Under the pieces are notes generated by a model that saw only the letters and a list, made by a program, of their open reading frames with translations, was not told the DNA's origin and did no database searches. Source: Spirochaetia bacterium (lineage in GTDB: Bacteria > Spirochaetota > Spirochaetia > CAKZLE01). Taken from it: 64,000 nucleotides of DNA. Within the stretch, counting starts at the first letter, position 1. Every line of letters begins with the position of its first letter. Position numbers and translations under genes: made by a program. This document shows, in pieces, positions 9,918 through 26,766 of this stretch. The stretch covers positions 1,824,001 to 1,888,000 of the forward strand of contig OY782041.1 in the NCBI GenBank assembly GCA_963677595.1, given 5' to 3'.

Positions 9918-9925
9918 GGGAACCA

Positions 9926-11035
9926 ATGAACGACAATGAAAGACGCGACACGATCATGATCGTGGATGATACACCGGCTAACCTGAAAGTGCTGCAGGAA
10001 CTCCTCCTCGAGGAGGGATACCGGGTGGTAGCCTTCCCAAGGGCCCCGATGGCGATCAAGTCACTCGACCGGACGCAGCCTGACCTGATCCTCATGGACA
10101 TCATGATGCCGGACATGGATGGCTTCGAGGCCTGCCGGGTCATCAAGTCGATGCCGGGTGGGAAGGATATACCGATCATCTTCCTCAGTGCCCTGAGCGA
10201 TACCCTGGATAAGATCAAGGCCTTCGGGTCCGGGGGGGTGGATTACATCACCAAGCCCTTCCAGAAGGATGAGGTCGTCGCCAGGATCCATACCCATATC
10301 AGCATGCGGCGGATGCAGCAGGAGCTCTCCCGCCATAACCGGGAGTTGACGAAGATGGTGGATGAGAAGGTGCGGGAGATCTCAGACTCACAGCTCTCCA
10401 CCCTGGTGGCCATCACCAACCTCTCGGAATCCCGCGACAACTTCACCGGCAAGCACATCGAGCGGACCGGTATCTTCTGCAAGGTCATCGCCGAGGAGAT
10501 GATAGCACGGGGGCTCCACCCCGATATCGTCGACGAGACCTTCGTGAAGAACCTCTACCATGCGGCCCCCCTCCATGACATCGGGAAGATCGGTATCCCC
10601 GACCACATCCTGCTGAAGAAGGGGCGGCTCACCGATGAGGAGTTCGAGATCATGAAGGCCCATACGACCATCGGTGCGATGACGCTGCGGAACGTCCTCG
10701 AGATGTACCCGCAGAACGCCTTCATCCACCTCGGGATCGAGCTGGCGATCTCCCACCACGAACGGTGGAACGGGAGGGGGTACCCCTCCGGCCTCAAGGG
10801 TGAGGCGATCCCGGTCTCGGGCAGGATCATGGCCTTAGCCGATGTCTATGATGCCGTACGGTCACGTCGACCCTACAAGGAGCCGGTCTCCCACGCTGAT
10901 ACGGTCGAGATCATCAAGGGTGAGCGAGGCTTCCACTTCGATCCCCAGGTCGTCGATATCTTCCTCGACAAGGGGGCTGTCTTCGAGGAGATCAGCGTGA
11001 AGATGAAGGACTCCGACGAGGGGTCGTTCACCTGA
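9926..11035 (+). CDS. Response regulator with HD-GYP domain (RpfG-like cyclic-di-GMP phosphodiesterase)
   Basis: REC IMIVDD/LILMDIMMP; LHDIGKIGIPD and HHERWNGRGYP motifs. Confidence 0.93.
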   Translation: MNDNERRDTIMIVDDTPANLKVLQELLLEEGYRVVAFPRAPMAIKSLDRTQPDLILMDIMMPDMDGFEACRVIKSMPGGKDIPIIFLSALSDTLDKIKAFGSGGVDYITKPFQKDEVVARIHTHISMRRMQQELSRHNRELTKMVDEKVREISDSQLSTLVAITNLSESRDNFTGKHIERTGIFCKVIAEEMIARGLHPDIVDETFVKNLYHAAPLHDIGKIGIPDHILLKKGRLTDEEFEIMKAHTTIGAMTLRNVLEMYPQNAFIHLGIELAISHHERWNGRGYPSGLKGEAIPVSGRIMALADVYDAVRSRRPYKEPVSHADTVEIIKGERGFHFDPQVVDIFLDKGAVFEEISVKMKDSDEGSFT

Positions 11036-11330: not shown

Positions 11331-12320
11331 TCAACTCTCCCGTTCGATGAGTTCCGGGGTATAGACGACCGTCTTGGTGAATGAGACCTTCTGGTCTATC
11401 AGGTCGAGCAGGGCGTTCGCGCTCTCGTAGCCGAGGCTGTACTTCGGCACCCTGATTGTGGTGAGCTTCGGGATGGTCATCTCACTCATCTCTACATCGT
11501 CATGGCTGATCACGTTCACCCGTCCCGGGATGTCTATCTTCAGGTCATAAAGCGCCCGCAGGACCCCCATGGCCATCTGGTCGTTATAGACGAAGATCGC
11601 GTCGGTATCCGGGTGGCTCTGCATGAGGGTGACCGTCGATGCGTAGGCTGCCTCCATCGAGCTGTCGCACTGGAGGATCCTGCCCCGCTCAAGCTCGATG
11701 CCGGACTCCTTTAGCTGCTCCTTATAACCTTTGAGACGATCCCGGTTGCAGGAGACCTTGAGGTGGAACCCGATATAAGCGGGCTTCGTCCTGCCTTTAC
11801 TGCAGATATACTCCGCGGCTAGCCGGCCGCTCCGGTAGGAGTCGGTGATGAAGTAACTCTGGGTATTGAGGTTCCCCTTCCTGACGATGGTAATATGAGG
11901 TACATGGAGCTGGTCATAATCGAGTTCGCTGACCAGGTCCTGGGACGGGACGATGAGCAGCCCCGCGACCCGGTTCGCCGCGAGGGTACGGAGCATCCGG
12001 CTCTCCCGCTCGAGGTCCTCGTTGCTGCTCAGCGCGAGGATCGTGTAGCCCGACTTCACGATGGCATCATTGATCCCCTGGAGGATCTTCGCATAGAAGG
12101 CATTGTCGATATGGGTGACCACGACCCCGATGGTCTTCTTCGACTGGGTGCGCAGGTGGCTTGCCGAGGCGTTCGGGATATACCCGAGCTCATCGGCGAT
12201 CTTCCTGATCCTCCGCTTCGTCTCCTCCCCGATGTCGCTCTTGTCCTGGAGAGCCCGGCTCACGGTATTGATCGAGACCTTGGCCTTGTCTGCAATATCC
12301 TTCAGGCGTACGTAACCCAT
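11331..12320 (-). CDS. LacI family transcriptional regulator
   Basis: LKDIADKAKVSINTVSRAL HTH, LGYIPN.SA..L hinge, PKLTTI sugar-binding C-terminus (alternative start 12326). Confidence 0.95.
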   Translation of the reverse strand: MGYVRLKDIADKAKVSINTVSRALQDKSDIGEETKRRIRKIADELGYIPNASASHLRTQSKKTIGVVVTHIDNAFYAKILQGINDAIVKSGYTILALSSNEDLERESRMLRTLAANRVAGLLIVPSQDLVSELDYDQLHVPHITIVRKGNLNTQSYFITDSYRSGRLAAEYICSKGRTKPAYIGFHLKVSCNRDRLKGYKEQLKESGIELERGRILQCDSSMEAAYASTVTLMQSHPDTDAIFVYNDQMAMGVLRALYDLKIDIPGRVNVISHDDVEMSEMTIPKLTTIRVPKYSLGYESANALLDLIDQKVSFTKTVVYTPELIERES

Positions 12321-12340
12321 CAGCATCTCCCCCTAATGCC

Positions 12341-12352
12341 ATTAACGTTAAT
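12341..12352. promoter_or_regulatory. LacI-type operator (auxiliary or autoregulatory)
   Basis: Palindrome ATTAACGTTAAT, identical to the core of the 12458 site. Confidence 0.75.
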
Positions 12353-12424
12353 CCTATTATAGATTATTTTTATACGTGTAATAAAGAGCAGAATAGTGAT
12401 ATTCATGATTTTCTCATTTATTGT

Positions 12425-12473
12425 TTGACAAATATGGGATTCGATCCTATACTTTCAACATTAACGTTAATGT
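12425..12473 (+). promoter_or_regulatory. Sigma70 promoter with LacI operator at the transcription start
   Basis: TTGACA(12425)-17 bp-TATACT(12448); perfect 16-bp palindrome ACATTAACGTTAATGT at 12458-12473 with the central CG typical of LacI-family sites. Confidence 0.85.
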
Positions 12474-12494
12474 AACGTACAAAAGGAGAATCTT

Positions 12495-13772
12495 ATGAAC
12501 AAACGACTGATGCTTACGCTCTTCGTCGTGCTCTGCCTGGCATTCCCTGCCGCCCTCACGGCACAGGGACAGACAGAAGGAGAGGCAGCCCCGGAGAAGG
12601 TAACATTCTTTCACTACTTCTCAGGGACCCTCGCCGGTGGGATCGACGATCTTGTGGGCAATTTCAATGCGGAGAACCCGGAGTATGAACTGACCCATAC
12701 CCCCGTGGACCATGAGGCCTTCAAGACCTCCATCAGGGTCATGCTCTCCGGCGGCAATCCGCCGACCCTCTTCTCATACTGGGCCGGGGCACGGGTACAG
12801 TTCATCGTGGATGCTGACAGGCTCGAACCCATCGATGATGTCTATGAAGCATTCGGCTTGAACGATACGTTCAGCGAGGCTGTCAAGATGGGGGCAACCT
12901 ATAACGGGAAGACCTACTTCATGCCGCTGACACAGCATTATGTACCCTTCTTCTATAACAAGGCTGTCTTCGAGGCGGCCGGGGTCACCCCTCCGGCAAC
13001 CTGGGATGAGTTCCTCACCGTCTGTGAGACCCTCAAGTCACAGGGGATCGTCCCGATCGCCCTCGGCTCACGGGAACGATGGCCGGCACAGTTCTGGCTC
13101 GACTACCCGCTGCTGCGGACAGCAGGACCTGCCTACCGTGCAAACCTCATGAACGGAGAAGCCTCCTATACCGACCCCGAGGTCGTGAAGGCTTTCGGTA
13201 TCTGGAAGGAACTGCTGGACAAGGGCTATTTCAACGAGGACCCCAACGCCTATGACTGGGCTGAGGCAGTCACGATGGTCGGGACCGGGGAAGCAGCCAT
13301 GACCCTCATGGGTACCTGGTTCATGCAGCTTGACGAGCAGATCGGCTGGGAAGCCGGTAAGGATTACGATTACTTCCCGTTCCCCGTCATCGACCCGTCA
13401 GTGCCGGATGCCGCAGTCGGACCGATCGACGGTGTCGTGCTGGCTAAGGATGGTGATGCCAAGGAAGCCGGGAAGGAAGTACTCGGCCAGCTCGCAGGGA
13501 AGGGGCCGCAGGCGACCTTCAACAGCGGGACCGGTGCACTGGCCCCCAACAGCGAGGTCTCCGACGATATCTACAATGCCCTCCAGCTCGACGTGAAGGC
13601 GTACCTCGCGACCGTCCCCAACTGGGCATACAACTATGACCTGGCAACCCCTCCGCCGGTAGCGGATGTCGGCCTCGATGCATTCACGAAGTTCATCGAC
13701 GGGCCTGCCGCCTACCTCGATATCCTCTCGGATACCCAGAAAGGCGCAGAAGCGGCCTTCGCGAACCTCTAG
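12495..13772 (+). CDS. Carbohydrate ABC transporter substrate-binding protein (CUT1)
   Basis: Signal peptide; FFYNKAVFEAAGVTPPATWDEF and AAMTLMGTW motifs; SD aaggag. Confidence 0.92.
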   Translation: MNKRLMLTLFVVLCLAFPAALTAQGQTEGEAAPEKVTFFHYFSGTLAGGIDDLVGNFNAENPEYELTHTPVDHEAFKTSIRVMLSGGNPPTLFSYWAGARVQFIVDADRLEPIDDVYEAFGLNDTFSEAVKMGATYNGKTYFMPLTQHYVPFFYNKAVFEAAGVTPPATWDEFLTVCETLKSQGIVPIALGSRERWPAQFWLDYPLLRTAGPAYRANLMNGEASYTDPEVVKAFGIWKELLDKGYFNEDPNAYDWAEAVTMVGTGEAAMTLMGTWFMQLDEQIGWEAGKDYDYFPFPVIDPSVPDAAVGPIDGVVLAKDGDAKEAGKEVLGQLAGKGPQATFNSGTGALAPNSEVSDDIYNALQLDVKAYLATVPNWAYNYDLATPPPVADVGLDAFTKFIDGPAAYLDILSDTQKGAEAAFANL

Positions 13773-13783
13773 GAACCGTATCT

Positions 13784-13816
13784 TCCTGTGATGTAGCGAT
13801 CGGCTGCATCACAGGA
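13784..13816 (+). terminator. Intra-operon stem-loop after the SBP gene
   Basis: TCCTGTGATGTAGC-gatcg-GCTGCATCACAGGA, no strong U-tract. Confidence 0.55.
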
Positions 13817-13845
13817 GCCTTCTTACCCCAGATTAAGGATACTGC

Positions 13846-14712
13846 ATGAAACAGAAACTACTTGCCTGGCAGTTCCTCGCGTTGCCGCTGGCGATCTACG
13901 CAGGAATCATCATCATCCCGTTCTTCGGTTCGATCGTCTACAGCTTCACCGACTGGAACGGTATCTCCGAGACCTGGAACTTCATCGGGCTGAAGAACTA
14001 CCTGAGGGTGTTCACGGACGTGAACTTCAAGGGGGCCCTGCTCCACAACGTGGTCTGGGTCATCTTCTTCCTCGGCATCCCGACGCTCTTCGGGCTCCTG
14101 ATGGCAGTCCTCCTCGATTCGAAGGTGAAGGGGGCGACCCTCTTCAAGTCGGTCATCTACCTCCCCATGATCTTCTCCTACGTCATCGCAGGAATGATCT
14201 GGACCTTCATCTATGAACCGAGGCTTGGCATCATCAACCTGGCCCTCTCCCGAGTCGGCCTTGACGGGCTTACCACCGCGTGGCTGGCTAACCCTGATAC
14301 GGCCCTCATCTCAGTCATCCTCGTTGCTGCCTGGCAGCATACGGGACTGTGCATGATCCTCTTCCTTGCCGGGCTGCAGGGCGTCCGGTCCGACCTCATC
14401 GAGGCGGCACAGCTCGACGGCTGCGGAGAGCGGCAGGTCTTCTGGCATGTCGTCCTGCCGCAGCTCTCGAACTCGGCGATCATCGTCATCTCCCTGACGG
14501 TGATCAACTCGCTCAAAAGCTTCGACATCGTCTATATCATGACCAAGGGCGGGCCGTTCAGGTCCTCTGAGGTGCTGACGACCCTGATGTACCGCGAGGC
14601 TTTCTGGAACTACCAGATGGGCTACGGGAGCGCGGTAGCGAACATGCTCTTCTTCATCGTACTGGGGATCATATTCCTCTATCTCAGGACCCTGGTAAAG
14701 GAGGGGAAGTGA
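13846..14712 (+). CDS. Carbohydrate ABC transporter permease (MalF/UgpA-like)
   Basis: FIGLKNY, EAA motif LIEAAQLDG, FDIVYIMTKGGP. Confidence 0.94.
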   Translation: MKQKLLAWQFLALPLAIYAGIIIIPFFGSIVYSFTDWNGISETWNFIGLKNYLRVFTDVNFKGALLHNVVWVIFFLGIPTLFGLLMAVLLDSKVKGATLFKSVIYLPMIFSYVIAGMIWTFIYEPRLGIINLALSRVGLDGLTTAWLANPDTALISVILVAAWQHTGLCMILFLAGLQGVRSDLIEAAQLDGCGERQVFWHVVLPQLSNSAIIVISLTVINSLKSFDIVYIMTKGGPFRSSEVLTTLMYREAFWNYQMGYGSAVANMLFFIVLGIIFLYLRTLVKEGK

Positions 14713-15548
14713 TGCAGACAGCTAAGAATCCGCTAAAGAGAGCAGTGATCTACCTGGTCATCCTGCTCCTCTGCCTCATCTTCCTCATCCCCGTCTACGG
14801 GGCGGTGACCACGGCATTCCGGCTCAACAAGGAGATCATCCACGAGGGATTCTGGGTGCTGCCCTCGAGCCTCACCTTCGAGAACTTCCAGAACGTCCTC
14901 TCTGACGGGAAGCTCCTCGGTTTCCTTCGGAACACCTTCCTGGTGACCGGTACGGCTACCGTGGTATCGATCGCGCTCGGCTGCCTGACAGGTTACGCCT
15001 TCGGGAAGCTCGAGTTCAAGGGGAGCGGCCCGCTCTACCTCGTCGTCATCGCGGGCATGTTCTTCCCGCCGCAGGTCGTGCTCATCCCGCTCTTCAAGCT
15101 CTTCAACACCCTGCACCTGCTCGATACAGTCTGGGCCCTGATCCTGGTCCATGTCGGCTTCGGTCTGCCGATCTGCACCCTCATGATGACCAACTTCTTC
15201 AAGGACATCCCGGATGCCCTGAGGAGTTCGGCGAGGATCGACGGCTGCAGTGACTGGGTGATCCTGCGGAAGATCATGCTCCCGCTGGCGAAATCGTCGA
15301 TCACTGCCCTGGTCATCCTGCAGTTCACCTGGATCTGGAACGACTTCCTCTGGCCGCTGGTCATGGTCAAGTCGGAGTCGAAGATGACGATCCAGATGGG
15401 GATCATGCAGATCAGGGGACAGTACGGGCTCGCATGGGGCAACCAGGCGGCAGCCTGCCTGCTCGCGACGATCCCGACCCTCCTGCTCTTCATCTTCATG
15501 CAGAAGTACTTCATCAGAGGGCTGACCATGGGGGCGGTGAAAGAATGA
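14712..15548 (+). CDS. Carbohydrate ABC transporter permease (MalG/UgpE-like)
   Basis: SARIDGC EAA motif, WNDFLWPL, QKYFIRGLTMGAVK. Confidence 0.94.
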   Translation: MQTAKNPLKRAVIYLVILLLCLIFLIPVYGAVTTAFRLNKEIIHEGFWVLPSSLTFENFQNVLSDGKLLGFLRNTFLVTGTATVVSIALGCLTGYAFGKLEFKGSGPLYLVVIAGMFFPPQVVLIPLFKLFNTLHLLDTVWALILVHVGFGLPICTLMMTNFFKDIPDALRSSARIDGCSDWVILRKIMLPLAKSSITALVILQFTWIWNDFLWPLVMVKSESKMTIQMGIMQIRGQYGLAWGNQAAACLLATIPTLLLFIFMQKYFIRGLTMGAVKE

Positions 15549-15579
15549 GTGGTATACATACGAAAGTGAGGTTTGATTC

Positions 15580-17475
15580 ATGAGACAAGAGATACAAACA
15601 GATACTGTCAGCAGGAGGAGGGTCCGTGCCCGTGCAGTCGCACAGGCAGGCTCCCTGCAGCAGGCAGTCCTTACCGGGCTGATAGAACAGTTCGAGGACC
15701 TGACGATGAATGAGGTGCTCGTCCTCGGGCTCATCAACCAGGAAGTGCGAACCTTCATCGGCATCTTCGGGCACGGCTCGACCGACCTCGGCGAGGTGCT
15801 GCGGGTCTATGAGGAGGAAGGGCTGCTGAAGGTGATCCCCGTCCACAACGAGGTGATGGCCTCCCATGTCGCGTCCATGCTCGCATGGAAGCACGGGGAG
15901 CGTCCTGCCGTGTTCACGTCGATCGGGCCGGGAGCCCTCCAGGCAGCGGCAGGTTCACTGGTGAGCCTCTCCAACGGGCTGGGGGTCTACTACCTCTTCG
16001 GGGACGAGACGACCCACAACGAAGGGCCGAACATGCAGCAGATCCCGAGGAAGGAACAGGATCTCTACCTCCGGCTCCTCTCGACTCTCGGCAAGGCCTA
16101 TTCGGTCGCTGAGCCGCGGTCGATCTATACTGCCCTGAAGTGGGGGTATGCGGCGGTGAACGACCCCGCAGGCCATACGCCCTTCTTCCTGTTGCTCCCG
16201 ATGAACGCGCAGAGTACGGTCATGGAAGGGAGCAACCTGCTCGAGATACCTGCCCCTAAGGCATCATCACCACAGGTTTCCTGCGATGAGCGGCTCTTCA
16301 AGGATGCAGTTCGTGCGATCTCCACACATGACCGGATCCTCGTGAAGATCGGCGGGGGATCGCGGGATGTCCCGGAAGCGCTGCTCTCCGAGTTCGTGGA
16401 AGCGACCGGGGCCGTGCTGGTCCATGGGCCGAACGTGTCGGGGAGACTCCCCTATGGACATGGGCGGAACATGGGGGTCGGCGGGTCGAAAGGATCGATC
16501 TGCGGCAATTATGCTATGGAACACTGCGACCTGCTGATCAGCATCGGGGCACGGGGTGTCTGCCAGGCAGACAGCTCAGGAACCGCGTGGAAAGAGGTGA
16601 GGCAGGTGGTCAGCATCAATACCGAATGTATCGATGCCTACCAGTACAACCGTACGATCCCGCTGCTCGGGGACGCCGCCCTCGTCATCGGGAAGCTGCT
16701 TGGGCATCTTGGGAAGGTGCCGGTATCAGGGGAGAAGCAGGCATGGATCGATGTCTGCAGTGCCCGGAAGGAGCGCTGGCGGGAATACAAACGGGAACGG
16801 TATGACCATCCCGTCCTCTTCGATGAGGCCTTCGGCAGGAAGGTGCTGACCCAGCCGGCGGCGATCCGCTGCGCTGTGGGGTTCGCCGATGCCATCGAGG
16901 CCTGCAAGGTCTTCGATGCAGGGGATGTCCAGGCGAACGGCTTCCAGATCGTGGAGGACAGCTCCTACGGGAGGACCATAACCGATACCGGTTCCTCCTA
17001 CATGGGCTTCGCCGCCAGCGCGATCCTCGCCCATGCGTTGGTCGATACCGAAGAGTATGCGATAGCCTTCACCGGGGACGGGAGCTTCCTCATGAATCCC
17101 CAGATCCTCAGCGATGCCGTACAGTACGGGCTCAAGGCCATGGTCATCATCTTCGACAACCGGAGGATGGGAGCCATCTCGAGCCTCCAGAAGGCCCAGT
17201 ACGGTATAGACTACGCCACCAACGATTCCGTCGCTGTCGATTACGTGCAGCTAGCCTCCTCGTTCGCAGGGGTGAAGGGGATCTTCGGCGGCTATGACAC
17301 ACAAACACTGAAACAGGCCCTCGTGGAGGGGTATGAGTATAACGGACTGTCTGTGATCCACGTGCCGGTCTACTTCGGGGATGACCCGAAAGGCGGCCTG
17401 GGGACCTTCGGTTCCTGGAACGTCGGATGCTGGTGTGACGCAGTACAGCAGGAAAAACATAGGATAGGACTGTAG
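15580..17475 (+). CDS. ThDP-dependent enzyme, divergent IolD-like (acylhydrolase/decarboxylase family)
   Basis: GIFGHG, HNEVMASH and TSIGPGA resemble IolD; ThDP motif GDGSFLM...IFDN. Confidence 0.8.
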   Translation: MRQEIQTDTVSRRRVRARAVAQAGSLQQAVLTGLIEQFEDLTMNEVLVLGLINQEVRTFIGIFGHGSTDLGEVLRVYEEEGLLKVIPVHNEVMASHVASMLAWKHGERPAVFTSIGPGALQAAAGSLVSLSNGLGVYYLFGDETTHNEGPNMQQIPRKEQDLYLRLLSTLGKAYSVAEPRSIYTALKWGYAAVNDPAGHTPFFLLLPMNAQSTVMEGSNLLEIPAPKASSPQVSCDERLFKDAVRAISTHDRILVKIGGGSRDVPEALLSEFVEATGAVLVHGPNVSGRLPYGHGRNMGVGGSKGSICGNYAMEHCDLLISIGARGVCQADSSGTAWKEVRQVVSINTECIDAYQYNRTIPLLGDAALVIGKLLGHLGKVPVSGEKQAWIDVCSARKERWREYKRERYDHPVLFDEAFGRKVLTQPAAIRCAVGFADAIEACKVFDAGDVQANGFQIVEDSSYGRTITDTGSSYMGFAASAILAHALVDTEEYAIAFTGDGSFLMNPQILSDAVQYGLKAMVIIFDNRRMGAISSLQKAQYGIDYATNDSVAVDYVQLASSFAGVKGIFGGYDTQTLKQALVEGYEYNGLSVIHVPVYFGDDPKGGLGTFGSWNVGCWCDAVQQEKHRIGL

Positions 17476-17476
17476 C

Positions 17477-18643
17477 ATGAAACCAATACGTGTAGGATTT
17501 ATCGGGTGCGGCAGGATCTCGGATCTCCATTACCTCGGGTATAGGGACCGGGAGGACGCGAAGGTGGTCGCCGTCTGCGACACCAATGAGGCGGCAGCCG
17601 CCGCGAAGATGGGCGAGTGGGGCGCTGAGTACTCCACGACCGACTACCGGAGGATCCTCGAGGATCCCTCCATCGATGCGGTGGAGATACTCACCCCGCA
17701 GAAGCTCCATGAGTCGATGTCGATCGAGGCGCTCGAACGGGGGAAGCACGTGCTCGTGCAGAAACCGATGACCATCAGCCTGGAGAGTGCCGACCGGATG
17801 ATCGCGGCAGCGAAAGGGAGCGGGAAGACGTTCAAGGTCATGGAGAACTATATCTTCTACCCGCCGATCATGAAGGCTAAAGAGCTCATCGAGGAGGGGA
17901 GGATCGGGGAGCCGATCAGCATGAGGATCAAGTTCATCAGCGGTTCCTCCGGCGGCTGGGCCATCCCTGAGGAGTCCTGGGCCTGGAGGCTGGAGGAGAA
18001 CGTCGAGGGCCGCGGGATCCAGACCTTCGACCATGGCTTCCATATGTGGTCCACGGCCTGGTTCTTCATGGGGGAGGTGGAACGGGTCGTCGCCTGGATC
18101 GACTCGATCGACAACATCGTGGACTGCCCGGCGACCATCATGTGGAAGTACAAGGGGGGCAAGCAGTACGGGACCTGTGATTATACCCATGCCTGGGAGC
18201 TGGCCATCCCCTCTGACTACTATGCCAACGATGAGTGGTTCGAGATCACCGGCTCGAAGGGGGTCATCAAGGTCAACCGGTGCACCGGCCTGGTCCAGGA
18301 GGGCCCGTCAGTGAGCCTCTTCACCGATGAGGGCTGGGAGCACTTCTCTGACATCGAGTCGGACTGGGCTTCAGGCTTCATAGGGGCTACCGGGAACTTC
18401 ATCGATGCCATGCAGGGGAAGCGTACCCCCATGCTCAGCGGGGCTGATGCCCGCGAGATCATGAAGTTCAGCTTCGCGATCCAGAAGGCATCGAAGGAGC
18501 GGCGCGAGGTCTACCTCGACGAACTTGATGCCGAGGACCCCGAAGCCTACACGGCAGAGAGGATCGTGGAGGAGAAGGTGACGGCAGGCAGCCGGAAGAT
18601 CCTGACCCTCGATGAATTGAGAGCCTACCAGAGAATTCTGTAG
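17477..18643 (+). CDS. Gfo/Idh/MocA family NAD(P)-dependent oxidoreductase
   Basis: GFIGCGRIS Rossmann motif, GKHVLVQKPM, DHGFH. Confidence 0.92.
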   Translation: MKPIRVGFIGCGRISDLHYLGYRDREDAKVVAVCDTNEAAAAAKMGEWGAEYSTTDYRRILEDPSIDAVEILTPQKLHESMSIEALERGKHVLVQKPMTISLESADRMIAAAKGSGKTFKVMENYIFYPPIMKAKELIEEGRIGEPISMRIKFISGSSGGWAIPEESWAWRLEENVEGRGIQTFDHGFHMWSTAWFFMGEVERVVAWIDSIDNIVDCPATIMWKYKGGKQYGTCDYTHAWELAIPSDYYANDEWFEITGSKGVIKVNRCTGLVQEGPSVSLFTDEGWEHFSDIESDWASGFIGATGNFIDAMQGKRTPMLSGADAREIMKFSFAIQKASKERREVYLDELDAEDPEAYTAERIVEEKVTAGSRKILTLDELRAYQRIL

Positions 18644-18684
18644 TACCGGGACATAAGGAAAAGAAGCAAAACAAGCGTATAGGT

Positions 18685-20094
18685 ATGAGTGAGAACATGA
18701 ACGTTAATGTAGAACAGATGATAGACGATATGATGAACAGGGCCCGTACGGCCCAGAAACGCCTCGAACATGCTACGCAGGAGGAGGTCGATACCCTCTG
18801 TGCCCATATCGCATGGGCAGGTATACAGGAAGACTTCGTAGAAGAGTTCGCAGCCCTGGCAGTCGAGGAGACCGGACTCGGCAGGGTGGAGAGCAAGAAG
18901 GCGAAGATCAGGACGAAGACCAAGGGGGTCTACCGCGACCTCAAGGGGAAGAGAAGTGTCGGGATCATAGAGGAGGACCTTGACCGGGGTATCGTGAAGA
19001 TCGCCAAGCCCGTCGGGGTCATCGGTGCCCTCATCCCCTGCACCAACCCCGAGGCCACCCCCTTCTGCAAGGCCCTGGCTGCGATCAAGACGAGGAATGC
19101 CATCATCATGGCACCGCACCCGCGGGCGGTGCGGACCGGGAAGATGGCAGTGGACAGGATGCGGAAGGTCCTCGAGTCCTTCGGCTACCCGGCTGACCTC
19201 ATCCAGGTCATGGAGAAGGTCAGTGTGGAGGCGAGCGGGAAGCTCATGGAGGCCTGCGACCTCATCATCGCCACCGGGGGAGGCGGGATGGTGAAGGCTG
19301 CCTACAGCAGCGGCACCCCTGCCTACGGTGTCGGCGCGGGGAACGCGGTCGTCATCGTCGATGAGACGGCGATACCCGAAAAGGTCGCTGATGACGTGAG
19401 GCGCTCCAAGACCTTCGATTACGCGACGAGCTGTTCGGCTGAGAACTCACTGGTCATCGAGGAGACGATATACGATAGGCTGGTTGACGCACTCACCGAG
19501 GAGCATGGGTACCTGCTGGATACCGGGGAGAAGGGACTCCTGCAGAAGGCCCTCTGGCCTGACGGTATCCACCTCAACCGTGAGGTCGTGGCACAGCCGG
19601 CATCGAGGATCGCGGAACTTGCCGGTATAACCATCCCCGAGGGAACCGAGTTCCTGATGGTAGAGGAGACCGGTTTCGGGAGTGCATACCCCTTCTCAGG
19701 GGAGAAGCTCTCCGTGGTCCTGACACTCTACCGGTATACCGAATTCATCGATGCCGTGGGACTCGTCAAGGGGATCACCGCATTCTCCGGTGCCGGCCAC
19801 TCCTGCGGTATGCATACTGCAGACCGGGAGCGGGCTGTAGCCCTCGCCGAGGCCGTCCCGGTCTCCAGGGTCATGATCAACCAGCCGCAGTGCCTGGCGA
19901 ACAGCGGGGCATGGTCGAACGGTATGCCGATGACCCTGACCCTCGGCTGCGGTACCTGGGGTGGGAACATCTCGAGCGAGAACATCGGCTGGAAGCAGAT
20001 GATGAATACCACCTGGGTCTCTTTCCCCATCGAGGCAGGGGAGCCCGACGATCGGGAACTCTTCGGCGAGCAGTTCCTGCAGCTACGCTACTAG
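18685..20094 (+). CDS. CoA-acylating aldehyde dehydrogenase (SauS/SucD/AdhE-N-like)
   Basis: PCTNP, ATGGGGMVKAAYSSGTPAYGVGAGN, SKTFDYATSCSAEN (catalytic Cys), GEKLS, TLTLGCGTWGGN. Confidence 0.88.
   Translation: MSENMNVNVEQMIDDMMNRARTAQKRLEHATQEEVDTLCAHIAWAGIQEDFVEEFAALAVEETGLGRVESKKAKIRTKTKGVYRDLKGKRSVGIIEEDLDRGIVKIAKPVGVIGALIPCTNPEATPFCKALAAIKTRNAIIMAPHPRAVRTGKMAVDRMRKVLESFGYPADLIQVMEKVSVEASGKLMEACDLIIATGGGGMVKAAYSSGTPAYGVGAGNAVVIVDETAIPEKVADDVRRSKTFDYATSCSAENSLVIEETIYDRLVDALTEEHGYLLDTGEKGLLQKALWPDGIHLNREVVAQPASRIAELAGITIPEGTEFLMVEETGFGSAYPFSGEKLSVVLTLYRYTEFIDAVGLVKGITAFSGAGHSCGMHTADRERAVALAEAVPVSRVMINQPQCLANSGAWSNGMPMTLTLGCGTWGGNISSENIGWKQMMNTTWVSFPIEAGEPDDRELFGEQFLQLRY
18695..18710. promoter_or_regulatory. 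Intragenic LacI-type operator
   Basis: ACATGAACGTTAATGT, 15/16 match to the main operator. Confidence 0.6.
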
Positions 20095-20103
20095 GGGCCT
20101 GAA

Positions 20104-21666
20104 GTGGTGAAAGATCATAGAGAGACCCTGCTGAGGATCAGCAGGGAGGCAGAATCGGGCGGCGGGTCCGCCAGGATGGAATCACAGCACCAGAAGGGAA
20201 AGTTGACGGCACGGGAGCGTATAGCCGTGCTGCTCGACCCGGGGTCCTTCGGGGAGATAGACAAGTTCAGGCTGCATGACTGCCATGACTTCGACATGAA
20301 GGAGAAGTCATACTACGGGGACGGGGTGGTCACGGGGTTCGGGACGATCGAGGGGACCGATGTCTTCGTCTATGCCCAGGACTTCACGGTCCTCGGGGGA
20401 TCGCTCTCCCGTTCGCATGCGAGGAAGATCTGCAAGGTCATGGATATGGCCGCCGACGCAGGGGCACCGATCATCGGTCTCAATGATTCCGGGGGAGCCC
20501 GGGTCCAGGAGGGAATCGACGCGCTTGCCGGCTATGGGGAGATCTTCTTGCGCAACGTGCGCTACTCCGGGCTCATCCCCCAGATCACGGCGATCCTCGG
20601 GCCCTGCGCCGGCGGGGCGGTCTACTCCCCGGCCGTGCAGGACTTCGTGCTCATGACAAGGCGCACCAGCCATATGTTCGTCACGGGGCCGAAGGTGGTG
20701 AAGACCGTCCTCCATGAGGATGTCACCACTGCGGACCTCGGCGGTGCCCAGGTCCACGGGACGGTCAGCGGTGCCGCCCATATCGTGAAGGAGACCGAGC
20801 ATGAGGTCATCGAGGAGATCAGGAGGCTCGTCTGCTTCCTCGCAAGGAAGGAGGTGGCAGAACAGTCTCTCCCCAAGAAGAAGGAGCCGGTGTTCAAGCG
20901 GCCTGCGAAGCGGGAATCCCTCTGGGACATCATCCCCGGGGACCTGCGGAAGCCGTACAACATCAGGGACGTGATCACGCAGGTCATAGACATCGAGTCC
21001 ATGATCGAGATCTCGCAGGACTTCGCGAAGAACATCGTGACCTGTTTCGCGCGGATCGGCGGGATCGGCATCGGCATCATCGCCAACCAGCCGAACCACT
21101 TTGCCGGCGTCCTTGACATCAAGGCATCGAGGAAGGCAGCGCGGTTCATCCGGTTCTGCGATGCCTTCGGGGTCCCGATCGTCACATTGGAGGATGTCCC
21201 GGGGTTCATGCCGGGGAAGGACCAGGAGCAGAACGGGATCATCGTGAACGGTGCGAAGCTGCTCTATGCCTATGCGGAGGCTACCGTGCCGAAGCTTACC
21301 GTCATCCTGCGGAAGGCCTATGGCGGGGCCTACATCGTGATGAGCAGCCGGCACCTGCTTGCCGACATGGTCTTCGCCTGGCCGCATGCCGAGATCGCGG
21401 TCATGGGGGCCGAGGGGGCTGTGGAGGTCCTCTACAGCAAGCAGGCCGGCAGCAATGGGCAGGTGACTGAGCATGAGTTCAGGCAGCAGAAGATCCAGGA
21501 GTACTCCGACTTCTTCCTCAACCCCTACCGGGCTGCGGAGAAGGGGTATATCGACGCGATCATCGACCCGGATGAGACACGGGAGCGGCTGCTGGGGGCC
21601 TTGCGGCTCTTCGCTGCGAAACAGCAGGTACTACCTGCAAAGAAACATGGGAACATACCCTTATGA
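20104..21666 (+). CDS. Acyl-CoA carboxyltransferase beta subunit (PccB/MmdA-like)
   Basis: GKLTARERI, DSGGARVQEG, GPCAGGAVYSP, DVPGFMPG, RKAYGGAY, C-terminal KKHGNIPL. Confidence 0.93.
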   Translation: MVKDHRETLLRISREAESGGGSARMESQHQKGKLTARERIAVLLDPGSFGEIDKFRLHDCHDFDMKEKSYYGDGVVTGFGTIEGTDVFVYAQDFTVLGGSLSRSHARKICKVMDMAADAGAPIIGLNDSGGARVQEGIDALAGYGEIFLRNVRYSGLIPQITAILGPCAGGAVYSPAVQDFVLMTRRTSHMFVTGPKVVKTVLHEDVTTADLGGAQVHGTVSGAAHIVKETEHEVIEEIRRLVCFLARKEVAEQSLPKKKEPVFKRPAKRESLWDIIPGDLRKPYNIRDVITQVIDIESMIEISQDFAKNIVTCFARIGGIGIGIIANQPNHFAGVLDIKASRKAARFIRFCDAFGVPIVTLEDVPGFMPGKDQEQNGIIVNGAKLLYAYAEATVPKLTVILRKAYGGAYIVMSSRHLLADMVFAWPHAEIAVMGAEGAVEVLYSKQAGSNGQVTEHEFRQQKIQEYSDFFLNPYRAAEKGYIDAIIDPDETRERLLGALRLFAAKQQVLPAKKHGNIPL

Positions 21667-21679
21667 GAAGGAAGAAGAT

Positions 21680-22579
21680 ATGAGAGTACAGGAACATCCT
21701 GGGATACGGAACGACCAGGATCGCAGGCTGCTGGACAGACTGGCAGCCGGGGAGACTCTGGGTGCAGGGGAGCTGGCCTATGCAGCCAGAAGGATCAGGG
21801 AACTGATCCTCCACACGACACATACCGCGGGAGCAGGGCATACAGGAGGATCCCTCTCAGAGGTCGAGATCCTGACCCTGCTCTTCTTCAAGCACCTGCA
21901 CATCGACCCGGCAGACCCCCGGATGGGGAACCGGGACCGGTTCATCCTCTCCAAGGGGCATGCCACACCGGGATACTACTCGACGCTTGCCTACCGGGGT
22001 TTCTTCGACCTGGAGGTGCTTGCCTCCTTCGACAGCCTCGGCAGCATCCTGCAGGCCCACCCGGACATGCACAAGGTCCCGGGCTGCGACATCTCCTCAG
22101 GATCCCTGGGACAGGGACTCTCCTGCGGGATCGGGATGGCACTCGGGGCTGCAAAATCGGGAGTAGAGAACATGGTCTATGTCCTGATGGGGGACGGCGA
22201 GAGCACCGAAGGACAGATCTGGGAGGCAGCCCTCTACGCGGGGGCAAAGAACCGGAAGGTGAAGAACCTGGTCGCGATCGTGGACAACAACCGGGTACAG
22301 CTGGCATCACACACGAAGGATGCAGTGGATCTCGGGGACCTCGCAGGGAAATATGAGGCTTTCGGCTGGTCTGCAGTCACCTGTGACGGCCATGACATCA
22401 CGGCACTTGATGCCGCGTTCACCAGGGCACGGAGAATGGCGGCAGATGGGCCGGTGGCGGTGATCGCGAACACGGTGAAAGGGAAGGGTGTCTCCTTCAT
22501 GGAGGATACCTGTTCCTGGCACGGCAGGGCCGCGAATGATGAGGAGTATGAACTGGCGATGAGGGAATTACATGGATAA
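21680..22579 (+). CDS. Transketolase, N-terminal (ThDP-binding) subunit
   Basis: GHTGGSLS, RDRFILSKGH, SSGSLGQGLS, GDGESTEGQIWEA, TVKGKG. Confidence 0.93.
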   Translation: MRVQEHPGIRNDQDRRLLDRLAAGETLGAGELAYAARRIRELILHTTHTAGAGHTGGSLSEVEILTLLFFKHLHIDPADPRMGNRDRFILSKGHATPGYYSTLAYRGFFDLEVLASFDSLGSILQAHPDMHKVPGCDISSGSLGQGLSCGIGMALGAAKSGVENMVYVLMGDGESTEGQIWEAALYAGAKNRKVKNLVAIVDNNRVQLASHTKDAVDLGDLAGKYEAFGWSAVTCDGHDITALDAAFTRARRMAADGPVAVIANTVKGKGVSFMEDTCSWHGRAANDEEYELAMRELHG

Positions 22580-23534
22580 GGACATTAGGATGAGATACCC
22601 GCAATTGGGTGATGAGATGATGCCGAGGACGGCGATGGGGGAGGCCCTGGTGGAACTTGCCGACAGGTTCCCCAACCTGATGGTCTTCGATGCCGATGTC
22701 TGTGCATCGACACAGACGGTGAAGTTCAGGGATGCATTCCCTGAGAGGTTCTACCAGATGGGAATCGCGGAGTCGAACATGGTGGGTGCCGCCGCGGGCA
22801 TGGCGACCTATGGGTTTACCCCCTTCGTCTCGACCTTCGCAGTCTTTCTGGCAAAGCGCGCGCTGGACCAGATACGGGTCTCGGTAGCCTACCCGAAGCT
22901 GGACGTGAAGCTCAATGGGGCATACGGGGGACTTCCCACCGGCAGGGCTGGTGCTACCCACTCGGCAGTGGCGGATATAGCAGTGATGCGGGCGATGCCG
23001 CACATGAGGGTGCTCGTCCCGGCTGATTCCGTGGAGACGAAGAAGGCCGTGGAGCTCTCGCTCTCAACAGACGGGCCTGTCTACCTGCGGACCGTCCGGT
23101 GTCCGGTTCCCACGATCTTCACCGGGAACCATGAGCCGGCATGGGGGAAGGGGATCACCCTTACCGAAGGGCAGGATGCCGCGATCATCTCGACCGGGAT
23201 GATGACCCCCTATGCGCTCTTCGCAGCAGAACAGCTTCGGAGCGAGGGGATCCACGTACGGCATATACACCTGGCGAGCATCAAACCGATCGACCGCGAG
23301 GTCATCATCAAGGCCGCGAGGGAGACCGGGACGATCTTCACCGTCGAGAACCACAGCATCATCGGCGGGCTTGGGGGAGCCGTTGCGGAGATCGTGGGCA
23401 GGGACTACCCCTGCAGGGTCCTCCCGATCGGGTTCACCGACCGGTTCATGGAATCGGGTGACGACAATACGATATTCTCTTCCTTCTCACTGGATACGGA
23501 AGGGATCAAGGCATGTGTCAGGAGGGCATTGTAA
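22572..23534 (+). CDS. Transketolase, C-terminal subunit
   Basis: GIAESNMVGAAAG, RALDQIR, GATH, VENHSIIGGLG. Confidence 0.93.
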   Translation: MDKDIRMRYPQLGDEMMPRTAMGEALVELADRFPNLMVFDADVCASTQTVKFRDAFPERFYQMGIAESNMVGAAAGMATYGFTPFVSTFAVFLAKRALDQIRVSVAYPKLDVKLNGAYGGLPTGRAGATHSAVADIAVMRAMPHMRVLVPADSVETKKAVELSLSTDGPVYLRTVRCPVPTIFTGNHEPAWGKGITLTEGQDAAIISTGMMTPYALFAAEQLRSEGIHVRHIHLASIKPIDREVIIKAARETGTIFTVENHSIIGGLGGAVAEIVGRDYPCRVLPIGFTDRFMESGDDNTIFSSFSLDTEGIKACVRRAL

Positions 23535-23538
23535 GGAT

Positions 23539-24168
23539 ATGAAGATAGCAGTGATAAACGAAGTGAGTGCATCGGCAAGGAATGGTGATATTATCAGGGC
23601 ACTGGAGGAGAGGGGACACGAAGTGTTCAATGTCGGGATGACCGACCCTGCTTCTGTTCCACAGCTGAGCTACATCCACACGGGTCTGCTGGCAGGTCTG
23701 CTCCTCTACACGAAGCGAGTCGATTTCGTCGTCGGCGGCTGCGGGACCGGACAGGGCTTCCTCAATGCGGCCATGCAGTACCCGGGAGTGTTCTGCGGGC
23801 TGGTAGTCGACGCGCTTGATGCCTGGCTCTTCACCCAGATCAACGGCGGGAACTGTATCTCCCTCCCGCTGAACAAGGGTTACGGCTGGGCAGCCGATAC
23901 CAACCTGCAGTTCATCTTCGACCGGATCTTCAGCGTGGAACCAGGCTGCGGGTACCCGGAGCACCGGAAGGAGCCGCAGAAGGCCTCCCGGATACTCCTC
24001 CAGGAACTTTCGATGATCTCACATCGACCGATGCATGAGATCCTGAGAGACCTCCCGGAAGAGATCACCAGGCCTGCATTGACCTACCCCGGCATCCTCG
24101 GGATCCTCGACCCCGAAACACTGGAGGATACGAGGCTTGCACAGGTCATAAGGGATATAACGGCATAA
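23539..24168 (+). CDS. RpiB/LacAB-fold ketol-isomerase, DhuI-type subfamily
   Basis: MKIAVINE, DFVVGGCGTGQG, DAWLFTQINGGNCISLP..KGYGW match the long RpiB-like family that includes streptococcal DhuI. Confidence 0.85.
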   Translation: MKIAVINEVSASARNGDIIRALEERGHEVFNVGMTDPASVPQLSYIHTGLLAGLLLYTKRVDFVVGGCGTGQGFLNAAMQYPGVFCGLVVDALDAWLFTQINGGNCISLPLNKGYGWAADTNLQFIFDRIFSVEPGCGYPEHRKEPQKASRILLQELSMISHRPMHEILRDLPEEITRPALTYPGILGILDPETLEDTRLAQVIRDITA

Positions 24169-24199: not shown

Positions 24200-24240
24200 G
24201 GAGCCGTCACTCCACTACAAGCTGTGGCGGCTCCCTTTTA
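24200..24240 (+). terminator. Rho-independent terminator of the LacI operon
   Basis: GGAGCCGTCAC...GTGGCGGCTCC followed by CTTTT, between convergent genes. Confidence 0.65.
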
Positions 24241-24272: not shown

Positions 24273-25370
24273 TCACAGAGCCTTCAGCTGAGTTATCAAT
24301 ACTGAGATCTCATCATCCTTGAGGCATTGCGGATTCACAGCAATGTAATCGCTCTCAATACCGACAAACACAGAAGTCTCAGAATCGAATAATCTTGATT
24401 TTATCTCTTCTGAGGGGATAGAGTCCCATTGTATATAGGCCCTGGGGATGTTAGCCGGCTGAATACCAGGTTCGACAGGATACCCTTTCCTGATCGTGAT
24501 GCCTGGTTTGTCCTTCAGTTGATCTAAGATGTGATCAGTGATGCTGTTCCACCGCTCCATATCCTTGTCAAAATCCCGTTCTGCAAAGAGTTCGACTGCC
24601 CTGACAAACCCTGCGATCGTCTCTTTGTCGATCTTCATGGGGCGCCCGATGCTGTGATGAGGACAGCAGTTCGCATCACAGGCCTCAATCAGCTCTTTCC
24701 GACCGACGATGACCCCTGAGGACTGCGGTCCTCTGATCTCCTTGCCTCCGCTGAAAACAACCAGGTCTGCCCCGATCTCGAGGTACTTGGTGATGTTCTC
24801 TCTTGGAGGGAGTTCAGCCGCAGCATCGACAATGACAGGGATATTATGTTTTTTCATAATAGGCATGATATCGTTCAGGTCCAGAGATCCTCTCATTGGT
24901 TCAGCTTCTGATGCATAGAAAAAGAAGGCAATATTCCCGGAGACGGCGTTCTCGATCATCTCGGTACAGGCGAATGAAGTCGTACCGACCTCCTTGAACC
25001 TGACCCCTGATTGAAGCAGTGCCTGGTCATACAGGTTCCTATGGGATTTCAGGACCAGAGCTTCACTCTTCATTCCCGTTGTATCAGGAAGTTGAAGGAT
25101 GCAGGCTTTATTGGTACCGGCAACACATGCTGCAGCGCTGATCGCCATACCGGCTGCTGCACCACTGGTGATACAAGCTGCCTCGACACCCAACAGTGAT
25201 GCGACTCGTTCCCCTGCATGCTTATGGAGCTTGTCTATATCTATGAAACAGGTGGAAGCTTCTTTCATAGTTTCCAGGACTGACGGATCCATGAGGGATC
25301 CTCCCAGCATGGTAAGGGTTCCTCCCGCATTGATCACCGGCTTTATTGATAGTTTTTCGTATATCGTCAT
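24273..25370 (-). CDS. SelA-like PLP-dependent enzyme (DgaE/ammonia-lyase-like)
   Basis: VINAGGTLTMLGGS, VDAAAE, FSGGKEIRGPQSSG (PLP lysine), IGRPMKIDKE; lacks the SelA N-terminal tRNA-binding domain. Confidence 0.85.
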   Translation of the reverse strand: MTIYEKLSIKPVINAGGTLTMLGGSLMDPSVLETMKEASTCFIDIDKLHKHAGERVASLLGVEAACITSGAAAGMAISAAACVAGTNKACILQLPDTTGMKSEALVLKSHRNLYDQALLQSGVRFKEVGTTSFACTEMIENAVSGNIAFFFYASEAEPMRGSLDLNDIMPIMKKHNIPVIVDAAAELPPRENITKYLEIGADLVVFSGGKEIRGPQSSGVIVGRKELIEACDANCCPHHSIGRPMKIDKETIAGFVRAVELFAERDFDKDMERWNSITDHILDQLKDKPGITIRKGYPVEPGIQPANIPRAYIQWDSIPSEEIKSRLFDSETSVFVGIESDYIAVNPQCLKDDEISVLITQLKAL

Positions 25371-25413
25371 ATGCACCTCATTCTAGTTACTATTAAATCA
25401 CTAAAAAAAAGAT

Positions 25414-25442
25414 TTGACAATATTAAATTTAAAATTTAAAAT
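25414..25442 (+). promoter_or_regulatory. Promoter with putative GntR site (copy 1)
   Basis: TTGACA-17 bp-TAAAAT; 19-mer TAAATTTAAAATTTAAAAT at 25424-25442. Confidence 0.72.
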
Positions 25443-25467
25443 GTTTGTAACATTCTCTTGATTAACT

Positions 25468-26193: not shown

Positions 26194-26209
26194 GATAACA
26201 GGAGGTATG

Positions 26210-26671: not shown

Positions 26672-26677
26672 TTTTTT

Positions 26678-26706: not shown

Positions 26707-26766
26707 TATAAATATTCACATGTCGAGGCATGTTGTATATTTAAATAAAATTTGGAGGAATGAAAG

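Follow-up and report, generated by a model that had tools for sequence, protein, structure and literature searches.

A predicted kinase-free operon for the degradation of a sugar-like compound via malonate semialdehyde in a Spirochaetia bacterium

Within a 64,000-nt stretch of the genome of a Spirochaetia bacterium (the window), the region 11331..24168 contains an operon that likely imports a sugar-like compound and is predicted from its genes to degrade it without a kinase: a five-carbon (C5) aldehyde-acid would lead to malonate semialdehyde and malonyl-CoA, and the end products would be acetyl-CoA and CO2. This is a real, undescribed variant pathway whose lower half is well constrained, and no description of it was found in the literature searched, a body of text in which most subscription journals and supplements were out of reach.

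In the scheme that we propose, a Gfo/Idh/MocA (Gfo) dehydrogenase would oxidise the imported compound to a 1,2-dicarbonyl (step 1), and a thiamine diphosphate (ThDP) enzyme would cut the C-C bond at the attacked carbonyl, releasing OHC-CHOH-CHOH-CH2-COO- (step 2), a 4-deoxy-penturonate or, put differently, 2-deoxypentonate oxidised at C5. By strict analogy with IolD the substrate of step 2 would be a five-membered carbocyclic 1,2-dione; loss of one carbon from a six-carbon 1,2-dicarbonyl or 2-oxo acid would lead to the same product. A DhuI-type isomerase would make HOCH2-CO-CHOH-CH2-COO- (step 3), from which a dedicated split transketolase (TK) would pass a C2 unit to a pentose-phosphate acceptor, leaving malonate semialdehyde (step 4). 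A CoA-acylating aldehyde dehydrogenase (ALDH) would convert this to malonyl-CoA (step 5), and a carboxyltransferase (CT) would strip CO2 by way of a biotin carrier whose gene lies elsewhere, perhaps with coupling to the Na+-pumping decarboxylase subunit that the genome encodes (step 6). What the sequences show directly are the genes and their family assignments, the operator, the active-site substitutions and the patterns of co-occurrence. We consider steps 3-6 quite probable, and the scheme as a whole, step 2 included, to lie slightly on the probable side.

The listing of open reading frames and their translation gave ten intact genes on the + strand between 12495 and 24168, separated by gaps of -8 to 73 bp, in the order binding protein, two permeases, ThDP enzyme, Gfo, acylating ALDH, CT, TK N subunit, TK C subunit and RpiB-fold isomerase. 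Profile searches of the proteins encoded in 11331..24168 found no kinase, aldolase, IolE-type TIM barrel or glycosidase. The initial annotation had described a single, tightly packed, LacI-repressed operon with these genes and these absences; the gene set, its order and the absences hold, and its layout is refined in that lacI is divergent on the - strand and the importer (a binding protein and two permeases) is encoded in the operon without an ATP-binding cassette (ABC) ATPase. Between lacI and the operon, the intergenic region holds two copies of the palindrome ATTAACGTTAAT (in 0 of 100 shuffles), and its 10-bp core was present in 5/192 fetched loci, exactly the five with an orthologous LacI. 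Because of the tight co-directional packing, the paired operators and the tie between operator core and LacI orthologues, the operon is a real unit and most likely co-regulated. The features are:

11331..12326, - strand: LacI-family repressor (Pfam LacI and Peripla_BP_3), divergent from the operon, with orthologues in 5/180 homologous loci
12341..12352, no strand: predicted LacI operator 1, palindrome ATTAACGTTAAT, adjoining the lacI start
12425..12453, + strand: sigma-70-like promoter match TTGACA-17-TATACT (11/12, a consensus match only)
12460..12471, no strand: predicted LacI operator 2, ATTAACGTTAAT, just downstream of the -10 box
12495..13772, + strand: CUT1-type sugar-binding protein, closest solved structure AcbH
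13846..14712, + strand: ABC permease 1 (profile match)
14709..15548, + strand: ABC permease 2 (profile match)
15580..17475, + strand: uncharacterised ThDP enzyme of the IolD sister clade, predicted maker of the C5 aldehyde-acid
17477..18643, + strand: Gfo/Idh/MocA dehydrogenase with conserved K96 and D185/H189, predicted to carry out the single entry oxidation
18685..20094, + strand: CoA-acylating ALDH of the SauS/SucD family, predicted to convert malonate semialdehyde to malonyl-CoA
20104..21666, + strand: lone PccB/MmdA-type CT, predicted to decarboxylate malonyl-CoA with a biotin carrier encoded elsewhere
21680..22579, + strand: split TK, N subunit (profile match)
22572..23534, + strand: split TK, C subunit, in which GRAGATH (residues 124-130) replaces GEDGASH
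23539..24168, + strand: DhuI-type (PRK09273) RpiB-fold aldose-ketose isomerase with the GCGTG Cys68 motif
24220..24232, + strand: weak terminator-like hairpin after the last gene (4 such sites versus 6.0 expected by chance)

Judging from its sequence, the ThDP enzyme is a sister of IolD and not IolD itself. Its best NCBIfam model is IolD (TIGR04377), with 149.4 bits against a cut-off of 715, a score outside the IolD family, and aligned with two annotated IolD proteins it shows 25-27% identity; the IolD-lineage motifs (IFGHG, the catalytic Glu, TSIGPG, QQ and GDGS...DNR) are invariant between it and these two. The structural model of the enzyme has a predicted local distance difference test (pLDDT) value of 87.7. 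Fold and profile searches of the PDB returned no solved structure above 20% identity, and as they gave only generic ThDP-superfamily folds at 17-20% identity, they are silent on the mechanism; an Atlas search with the homologue P0111 gave only unnamed ThDP clusters. The family is coherent, with 56-70% identity in 119/120 best matches, the remaining one being a 96% near-copy. Its gene is found in at least 498 genome stretches and in 26/401 genomes of the window's phylum (source genome included), and was not found in 5/5 same-family genomes examined (86-97% complete). Members occur in the cultured strains Anaerotruncus colihominis DSM 17241, Faecalicatena faecalis, Roseburia hominis, Phaeobacter piscinae S26, Labrenzia THAF187b and Sinorhizobium spp., as well as in Pelagibacteraceae genomes; the carriers include many gut, marine and soil bacteria.

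We compared 180 loci around ThDP homologues: 80 from genomes (best 80 of at least 498), 80 from metagenomes (best 80 of 509) and 20 of the 25 other phylum matches. Reading frames were called and clustered by script, and families were named from their representatives, the rest by best BLAST match. Since many loci lie on contigs shorter than the 10-kb flank and clustering at 90% identity reduces the 173 full-length ThDP proteins, that of the window among them, to 131, the counts that follow are descriptive and the loci are not independent: Gfo 81, isomerase 78, molybdenum-cofactor (Moco) oxidoreductase 43, TK 42, zinc alcohol dehydrogenase (ZnADH) 40, IlvD-type dehydratase 37, ALDH like succinate-semialdehyde dehydrogenase (SSADH) 35, MmsA-like ALDH 22, cupin 22, ADP-forming CoA ligase 20, BKACE 17, acylating ALDH 3, malonyl-CoA decarboxylase (MCD) 1 and CT 0, together with 82 loci with IclR regulators. 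The ThDP enzyme and the isomerase form the conserved core (78/180), and their genes are directly adjacent in 57 of these 78 loci; 45/180 loci show no downstream module. The initial annotation expected six enzymes to travel as a set, and this did not bear out, as the CT is found in 0/180 loci, the acylating ALDH in 3/180, and ThDP enzyme, Gfo, TK and isomerase together in 22/180. The CT of the window is thus a local substitute, present in none of the 180 other loci.

Four modules follow the ThDP enzyme: isomerase with TK; ALDH with IlvD; isomerase with cupin and BKACE; and a deoxyribonate-type CoA/thiolase/glycerate-kinase route. These downstream modules never or almost never share a locus. There was not one shared locus for IlvD and isomerase (37 versus 78 loci), IlvD and TK, BKACE and TK, BKACE and IlvD, cupin and TK, or SSADH-like ALDH and TK; conversely, the MmsA-like ALDH accompanies TK in 21/22 loci and BKACE accompanies the isomerase in 17/17. 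Two further loci (L197, L198) fit the pattern, and two annotated plasmid clusters read ABC-IclR-Gfo-ThDP-SSADH-IlvD (Labrenzia) and IclR-ZnADH-Moco-TTT-ThDP-SSADH-IlvD (Phaeobacter). A Lachnospiraceae branch (L002 and L188) carries the isomerase, a KduD-like short-chain dehydrogenase/reductase (SDR), CoA synthetase, CoA transferase, FabG-like reductase, thiolase and glycerate kinase, which is the enzyme set of the Klebsiella 2-deoxyribonate route in passages of PMC6365646, where BKACE is the Pseudomonas alternative. In a FastTree phylogeny of the ThDP proteins, onto which only loci with a module were mapped, the modules are interleaved, with at least 8 changes for TK and at least 5 for IlvD forced by the starred branches, and for this reason the whole family probably makes one and the same ThDP product.

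We infer from these gene sets "four endings, one INTERMEDIATE", that is, OHC-CHOH-CHOH-CH2-COO- as the shared intermediate of all four modules, from which each would reach central metabolism. The ALDH and IlvD ending would turn it into 2-oxoglutarate; isomerase and TK would yield malonate semialdehyde; isomerase, cupin and BKACE would yield glyceryl-CoA and acetoacetate; and isomerase plus reductase would yield 2-deoxypentonate, which would enter the CoA route. The sister branches with BKACE, or with CoA synthetase, hydroxyacyl-CoA dehydrogenase, thiolase, CoA transferase and glycerate kinase, resemble the oxidative 2-deoxyribonate pathways, and the shared enzyme types imply a 2-deoxypentonate skeleton; as passages of PMC6365646 describe them, those pathways differ in having no ThDP enzyme, isomerase or TK, whereas the window uses the TK branch. 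Two side observations concern the neighbours of these loci. Genes for UroD/MtaA-like TIM barrels lie inside or beside the cluster in 5/180 loci (L018, L020, L047, L105, L115), three of which carry extra operator copies. At L096:3-4208, an FGGY kinase, a Zn dehydrogenase, a DeoC-family aldolase and a DeoR regulator adjoin a LacI-ABC-ThDP-Gfo unit, possibly as a fifth, phosphorylating ending or as an unrelated cluster.

The TK branch itself ends in three ways: with an MmsA-type dehydrogenase (21/42 loci), with acylating ALDH and MCD (one locus) or, in the window, where MmsA is missing, with acylating ALDH and CT. These three interchangeable endings with the same chemistry, the recurrence of the four-gene core, the tight packing and the shared operator speak against a chance assembly of unrelated catabolic genes, an idea that draws on the full set being seen only in this genome among the loci and on the failure to find the ThDP gene in 5 same-family genomes; we regard it as hardly credible.

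The TK C subunit reads GRAGATH where the split TK of Carboxydothermus has GEDGASH, and the Asp of the GEDG motif, seen in 6yaj and human TK, is replaced in 36 of the 40 classifiable pathway TKs (from 42 loci), with G[RK][AG]GA[TS]H in 20. We take this residue to be D469 of E. coli TK. In passages of PMC3657141, D469A/T raises the activity of that enzyme on propionaldehyde only, and in passages of PMC13663882 D469 is a specificity hotspot. By its sequence the window TK has lost the Asp for the binding of alpha-hydroxy aldehydes, and the loss of Asp with the gain of Arg/Lys would fit a carboxylated aldehyde without an alpha-hydroxyl, as it would sulfoacetaldehyde. The isomerase scores 200.3 bits on PRK09273 (cut-off 137) with the catalytic Cys of GCGTG (C68) conserved, and so belongs to the DhuI type. 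Its subfamily has conserved residues of its own near Cys68, which differ from those of all three aligned DhuI-type structures, among them 4u8e, which is presumably DhuI. Like the operon's predicted intermediate, the known substrate of DhuI has the motif OHC-CHOH-CHOH-CH2-X; unlike the DhuI system, the operon has no reductase, KDG (2-keto-3-deoxygluconate) kinase or aldolase. No SDR partner of the DhuD/KduD kind is present in the window operon, and a KduD-like SDR occurs only in the sister branches. Passages of PMC12838403 make no mention of transketolase or thiamine with DhuI.

The ALDHs of the TK loci point to malonate semialdehyde as well. All 10 tested have methylmalonate-semialdehyde dehydrogenase (MMSDH, TIGR01722) as best match, 9 over the cut-off and one truncated, whereas 10/10 tested from non-TK loci best match SSADH; in the tree, TK-locus ALDHs form one clade split from IlvD-locus ALDHs at 100/100. 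In a Kiritimatiellia locus (L047) the order is ThDP-MCD (PF05292)-TK-TK-UroD-like-acylating ALDH-isomerase, the MCD gene being interrupted by an assembly gap, which means that a non-homologous malonyl-CoA decarboxylase takes the place of the window CT. The prediction of the initial annotation that a (methyl)malonate-semialdehyde-like aldehyde is converted to its acyl-CoA and decarboxylated is supported by the comparison of genomes: TK loci carry MmsA-type ALDHs, and one carries an MCD where the window has its CT. For the window ALDH, the best hidden Markov model (HMM) is SauS (NF047625), at 551.7 bits with a cut-off of 600; the cut-off does not discriminate, since the SqwD-like protein of the genome's own sulfoquinovose (SQ) cluster scores only 532. 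Its closest solved structure is the succinate-semialdehyde dehydrogenase 8cei. This prompted us to consider succinate semialdehyde, succinyl-CoA and methylmalonyl-CoA (a C6 dideoxy skeleton), a route disfavoured by the MmsA of TK loci and the MCD of L047. Malonate semialdehyde is a non-native BKACE substrate in passages of PMC11961710.

Among 400 same-phylum genomes, the three closest relatives of the window ALDH (L193, L194, L195) group with it (98.8/99) to the exclusion of the genome's two SqwD-like paralogues, in a tree whose rows were chosen by similarity, and the acylating ALDHs of L047, L040 and L125 are separate recruitments. The L193 ALDH is directly followed by a CT, and that of L195 is divergent from a transaldolase-like gene. 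The L194 ALDH heads a reductive pyrimidine operon with PreT/PreA (PreA over cut-off), a dihydropyrimidinase over cut-off, a nitrilase-family amidase and a class III aminotransferase. The chemistry of such operons ends in (methyl)malonate semialdehyde, and this ALDH is a candidate non-decarboxylating (methyl)malonate-semialdehyde dehydrogenase. Separately, we note that in L193:6417-12401 and L195:9127-12099 the same acylating ALDH (with the CT in L193) lies beside a transaldolase-like gene, named from its sequence only, possibly for a transaldolase-based carboxylate pathway that would also end in malonate semialdehyde. A top ThDP match (P0003) and the top non-self ALDH match (P0122) may be neighbours, a circumstantial link drawn from the same source class and the same longest contig of 17357 bp.

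The window CT has MmdA (TIGR01117) as best HMM, with 714 bits against a cut-off of 998.8, and so falls outside MmdA as defined by score. Neither a biotin carrier nor Na+-pump subunits are co-encoded with it; biotin/lipoyl domains and one Na+-pump beta subunit are encoded elsewhere in the genome. Its Ile411 aligns with PccB residue 422, where, in passages of PMC7835884, Ile widens specificity to acetyl-CoA. A second lone carboxyltransferase at G000:C1:3154256-3155884, 52% identical to the first, also has no biotin carrier beside it. As MmsA and MmdA/PccB families accept methylmalonyl substrates, and L194:9360-17725 lies back to back with methylmalonyl-CoA mutase and succinyl-CoA ligase-like genes, a C-methyl-branched substrate degraded via methylmalonate semialdehyde and methylmalonyl-CoA to propionyl-CoA has to be weighed. 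However, the IlvD branch would then stop at a methyl-oxoglutarate, for which additional enzymes would be required and are absent, L047 relies on an MCD, and the CT has Ile422; we find this quite improbable.

By analogy, the pathway is best read as a kinase-free carboxylate counterpart of the lower sulfoglycolytic transketolase (sulfo-TK) pathway, as the initial annotation had suggested; the separate inositol and sulfo-TK clusters of the genome and the loss of the Asp from the TK both favour this. The SqwD/SqwKL variant of Clostridium sp. MSTE9 and Acholeplasma sp., as described in passages of PMC12890257 and PMC11659671, likewise handles a non-phosphorylated anionic sugar without a kinase, through an aldose-ketose isomerase (here of the RpiB fold), a split TK and a CoA-acylating ALDH, and the predicted intermediates of the operon would be the carboxylate counterparts of sulfoerythrose (SE), sulfoerythrulose (SEu) and sulfoacetaldehyde. 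The operon differs in having no SQase, SQ isomerase, SqwKL or SqwF, in its entry by Gfo and the IolD-sister ThDP enzyme, in one predicted TK round rather than two and in ending in decarboxylation to acetyl-CoA instead of excretion.

The likeness could be taken further, with the ThDP enzyme making 4-sulfoerythrose from a sulfoquinovose derivative and the remaining genes forming the SqwI/SqwGH/SqwD variant of sulfo-TK. The architecture equals that of sulfo-TK in those sources, SauS is the best HMM of the ALDH, sulfatases adjoin four loci and glycerol kinase five, and a TauE-family exporter and a SucCD-type ligase flank the near-identical spirochaete loci L131, L133 and L136, whose close relatives, however, have neither. 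We still consider a sulfonate substrate improbable. The MmsA, MCD, CT, BKACE and CoA/thiolase branches require a carboxylate, the window ALDH falls outside the SqwD-like group, the operon has no SQase or SQ isomerase, and the genome has a separate SQ cluster. This cluster (L196, G000:C1:1452000-1471999) carries YihQ over cut-off, an SftI-like isomerase, an acylating ALDH, a CoA ligase, a DASS-like transporter, split TK and a short RpiB, with SQase, isomerase and ligase together at C1:1.452-1.472 Mb, and is a probable sulfo-TK cluster of the SqwD/SqwKL type. Its SqwD-like ALDH (532 bits on NF047625) is 46.5% identical to the window ALDH; the ALDH-ligase-transporter cassette has a near-duplicate at C1:3.98 Mb, next to an aminotransferase.

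In the myo-inositol pathway, IolG, IolE, IolD, IolB, IolC, IolJ and IolA act in this order. The operon shares with it a Gfo dehydrogenase, a ThDP enzyme of the IolD lineage, a predicted uronate isomerisation and a likewise predicted end from malonate semialdehyde to acetyl-CoA. It differs in its ThDP enzyme, which scores far under the IolD cut-off, and in a predicted C5 rather than C6 skeleton; IolE, IolB, IolC, IolJ, kinase and aldolase are all missing, the RpiB-fold isomerase seemingly replacing IolB, TK replacing IolC/IolJ, and ALDH plus CT replacing IolA. A true IolD (955 bits on TIGR04377) is encoded in an inositol cluster at G000:C1:627000-654200, together with IolE/IolG-like genes (read from sequence) and an IolB-family gene; two KduI/IolB-family genes of the genome lie outside the operon. 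Because the genome has separate IolD and SQ clusters, the window operon is, on sequence grounds, distinct from both the inositol and the standard sulfo-TK system of its host, and we rejected both a standard iol pathway and a standard sulfo-TK pathway with the missing genes elsewhere, either of which would have refuted the initial annotation. The inositol cluster adjoins two split-transketolase pairs, and a profile search of the source genome found no IolC or MMSDH over cut-off; inositol breakdown in this bacterium may end via transketolase.

An inositol or deoxy-inositol isomer could still feed the operon through a C6 5-deoxy-hexuronate that, once isomerised, TK would shorten to malic semialdehyde, a route to which the IolD-sister enzyme and the IolG-like Gfo would lend themselves. 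Malic semialdehyde, however, is not decarboxylatable by MmsA, MCD or CT chemistry and has an alpha-hydroxyl, yet the TK lost its Asp; TIM-barrel (IolE-like) genes occur in only 13/180 loci, and the true IolD is elsewhere. We rate this route as very improbable, and the comparison of genomes supports the initial annotation in its call for a non-inositol carbon skeleton, since a C6 inositol product would leave malic semialdehyde.

For the upper half, the entry modules are informative. Anion transporters (TTT, DASS, SDF) occur with ZnADH and Moco in 33/36 loci, and ZnADH with Moco in 40/40, while sugar transporters (CUT1, CUT2, GPH) occur with Gfo alone in 36/43 and never with Moco. The window has the Gfo type of entry, which places its substrate about one oxidation from that of the ThDP enzyme; PDB matches of the Gfo protein at E < 1e-10 were named dehydrogenases or oxidoreductases. 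A third entry module, on a Salipiger plasmid (L162:13104-24234), replaces Gfo or ZnADH and Moco by a TRAP transporter, a dehydrogenase of the tartronate-semialdehyde-reductase family, a small heme-binding protein and a TIM-barrel isomerase. Owing to the IolD ancestry and the adjacency of ThDP and isomerase genes, we favour 1,2-dicarbonyl cleavage that would make the aldehyde for the isomerase, most simply on a cyclopentane dione.

A 2-oxo-acid decarboxylation route fits nearly as well as this ring-opening/1,2-dicarbonyl reading. It would keep the lower pathway and have the ThDP enzyme act on a deoxy-keto uronate or aldonate, such as the 4-deoxy-5-hexosulose uronates DHU/DEH, an isomer or KDG; the isomerase would come first, as a true DhuI, and Gfo (Moco elsewhere) would oxidise the aldehyde left by decarboxylation, or, in a variant, decarboxylation would combine with beta-elimination of 5-keto-hexuronate. 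The redox count fits the two upstream modules (ZnADH and Moco versus Gfo), the isomerase is of the DhuI family with a KduD-like SDR following it in the Lachnospiraceae branch, IclR regulators are common and some Moco loci carry lactonase-like genes, a Mo enzyme oxidises deoxyribose in P. simiae according to passages of PMC6365646, and DHU and KDG are abundant. On the other hand, the nearest family is the dione hydrolase IolD, whose IFGHG His is retained, the recurring neighbours include no lyase or unsaturated-glucuronyl hydrolase, the isomerase residues near Cys68 are unlike those of the DhuI-type structures, and the genome has its KduI/IolB-family genes elsewhere. On balance we hold the decarboxylase route to be unlikely, if well worth keeping in mind. 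Two other substrates were rejected. On decarboxylation, 3-deoxy-manno-octulosonate (KDO) would yield a carboxylate exactly isosteric with sulfofructose, but its use in the IlvD branch would call for an aldolase, which is absent, and the window has just one dehydrogenase before TK; for quinate/shikimate, shikimate-dehydrogenase homologues occur in 3/180 loci and the carbon count does not fit.

Returning to cleavage of a 1,2-dicarbonyl to the C5 aldehyde-acid and malonate semialdehyde, several observations weigh against it, starting with the interdependence of the loci. The exact gene set of the window occurs in 0/180 loci, and 18/42 TK loci have neither MmsA nor acylating ALDH, some of them on short contigs. 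The GEDG Asp is kept in 4/40 classified TKs. The best HMM of the window ALDH is that of a sulfoacetaldehyde enzyme, and the TauE exporter and ligase beside L131, L133 and L136 point the same way. MmsA labels beyond the 10 HMM-tested proteins are best BLAST matches only, and MMSDH can also oxidise simple aldehydes without decarboxylation. Ile422 is weak evidence, since Ile is common and the second CT of the genome and 1vrg have it too. Finally, we know of no cyclopentane polyol abundant enough in nature to account for so wide a distribution.

Around the operon, a convergent block of lower GC content (0.47-0.48) at window 24273-31052 encodes a SelA-family pyridoxal-phosphate enzyme, a GntR-like regulator, a RidA-family protein, an ABC importer and an amidohydrolase-like gene, and resembles amino-sugar-acid deamination clusters. 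Upstream of lacI, at 5643-11035, a PAS hybrid histidine kinase and an HD-domain response regulator appear unrelated to the operon.

These results turn a common ThDP family with no assigned function into a directly testable pathway, in which the four alternative endings narrow the product to one small molecule. If the scheme is true, the operon would encode a carboxylate twin of sulfo-TK with a new C-C cleaving thiamine enzyme, the TKs would be tuned to carboxylated, non-hydroxylated aldehydes and of biocatalytic use, and a subfamily annotated as 'sulfoacetaldehyde dehydrogenase' would make malonyl-CoA instead. More tentatively, and with a little less than even confidence, we propose a widespread, hitherto undescribed catabolic hub in which the IolD-sister family, a new one, makes 4-deoxy-penturonate, removed by four interchangeable routes in at least 11 phyla. 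If so, the ThDP enzyme would open a five-membered carbocyclic dione or remove C1 from a six-carbon dicarbonyl; in the window it would take the form of an ATP-free TK route with a new non-decarboxylating malonate-semialdehyde dehydrogenase and a stand-alone CT that may feed a sodium pump; and the hub would suggest that gut, marine and soil habitats contain a plentiful natural metabolite that has gone unrecognised.

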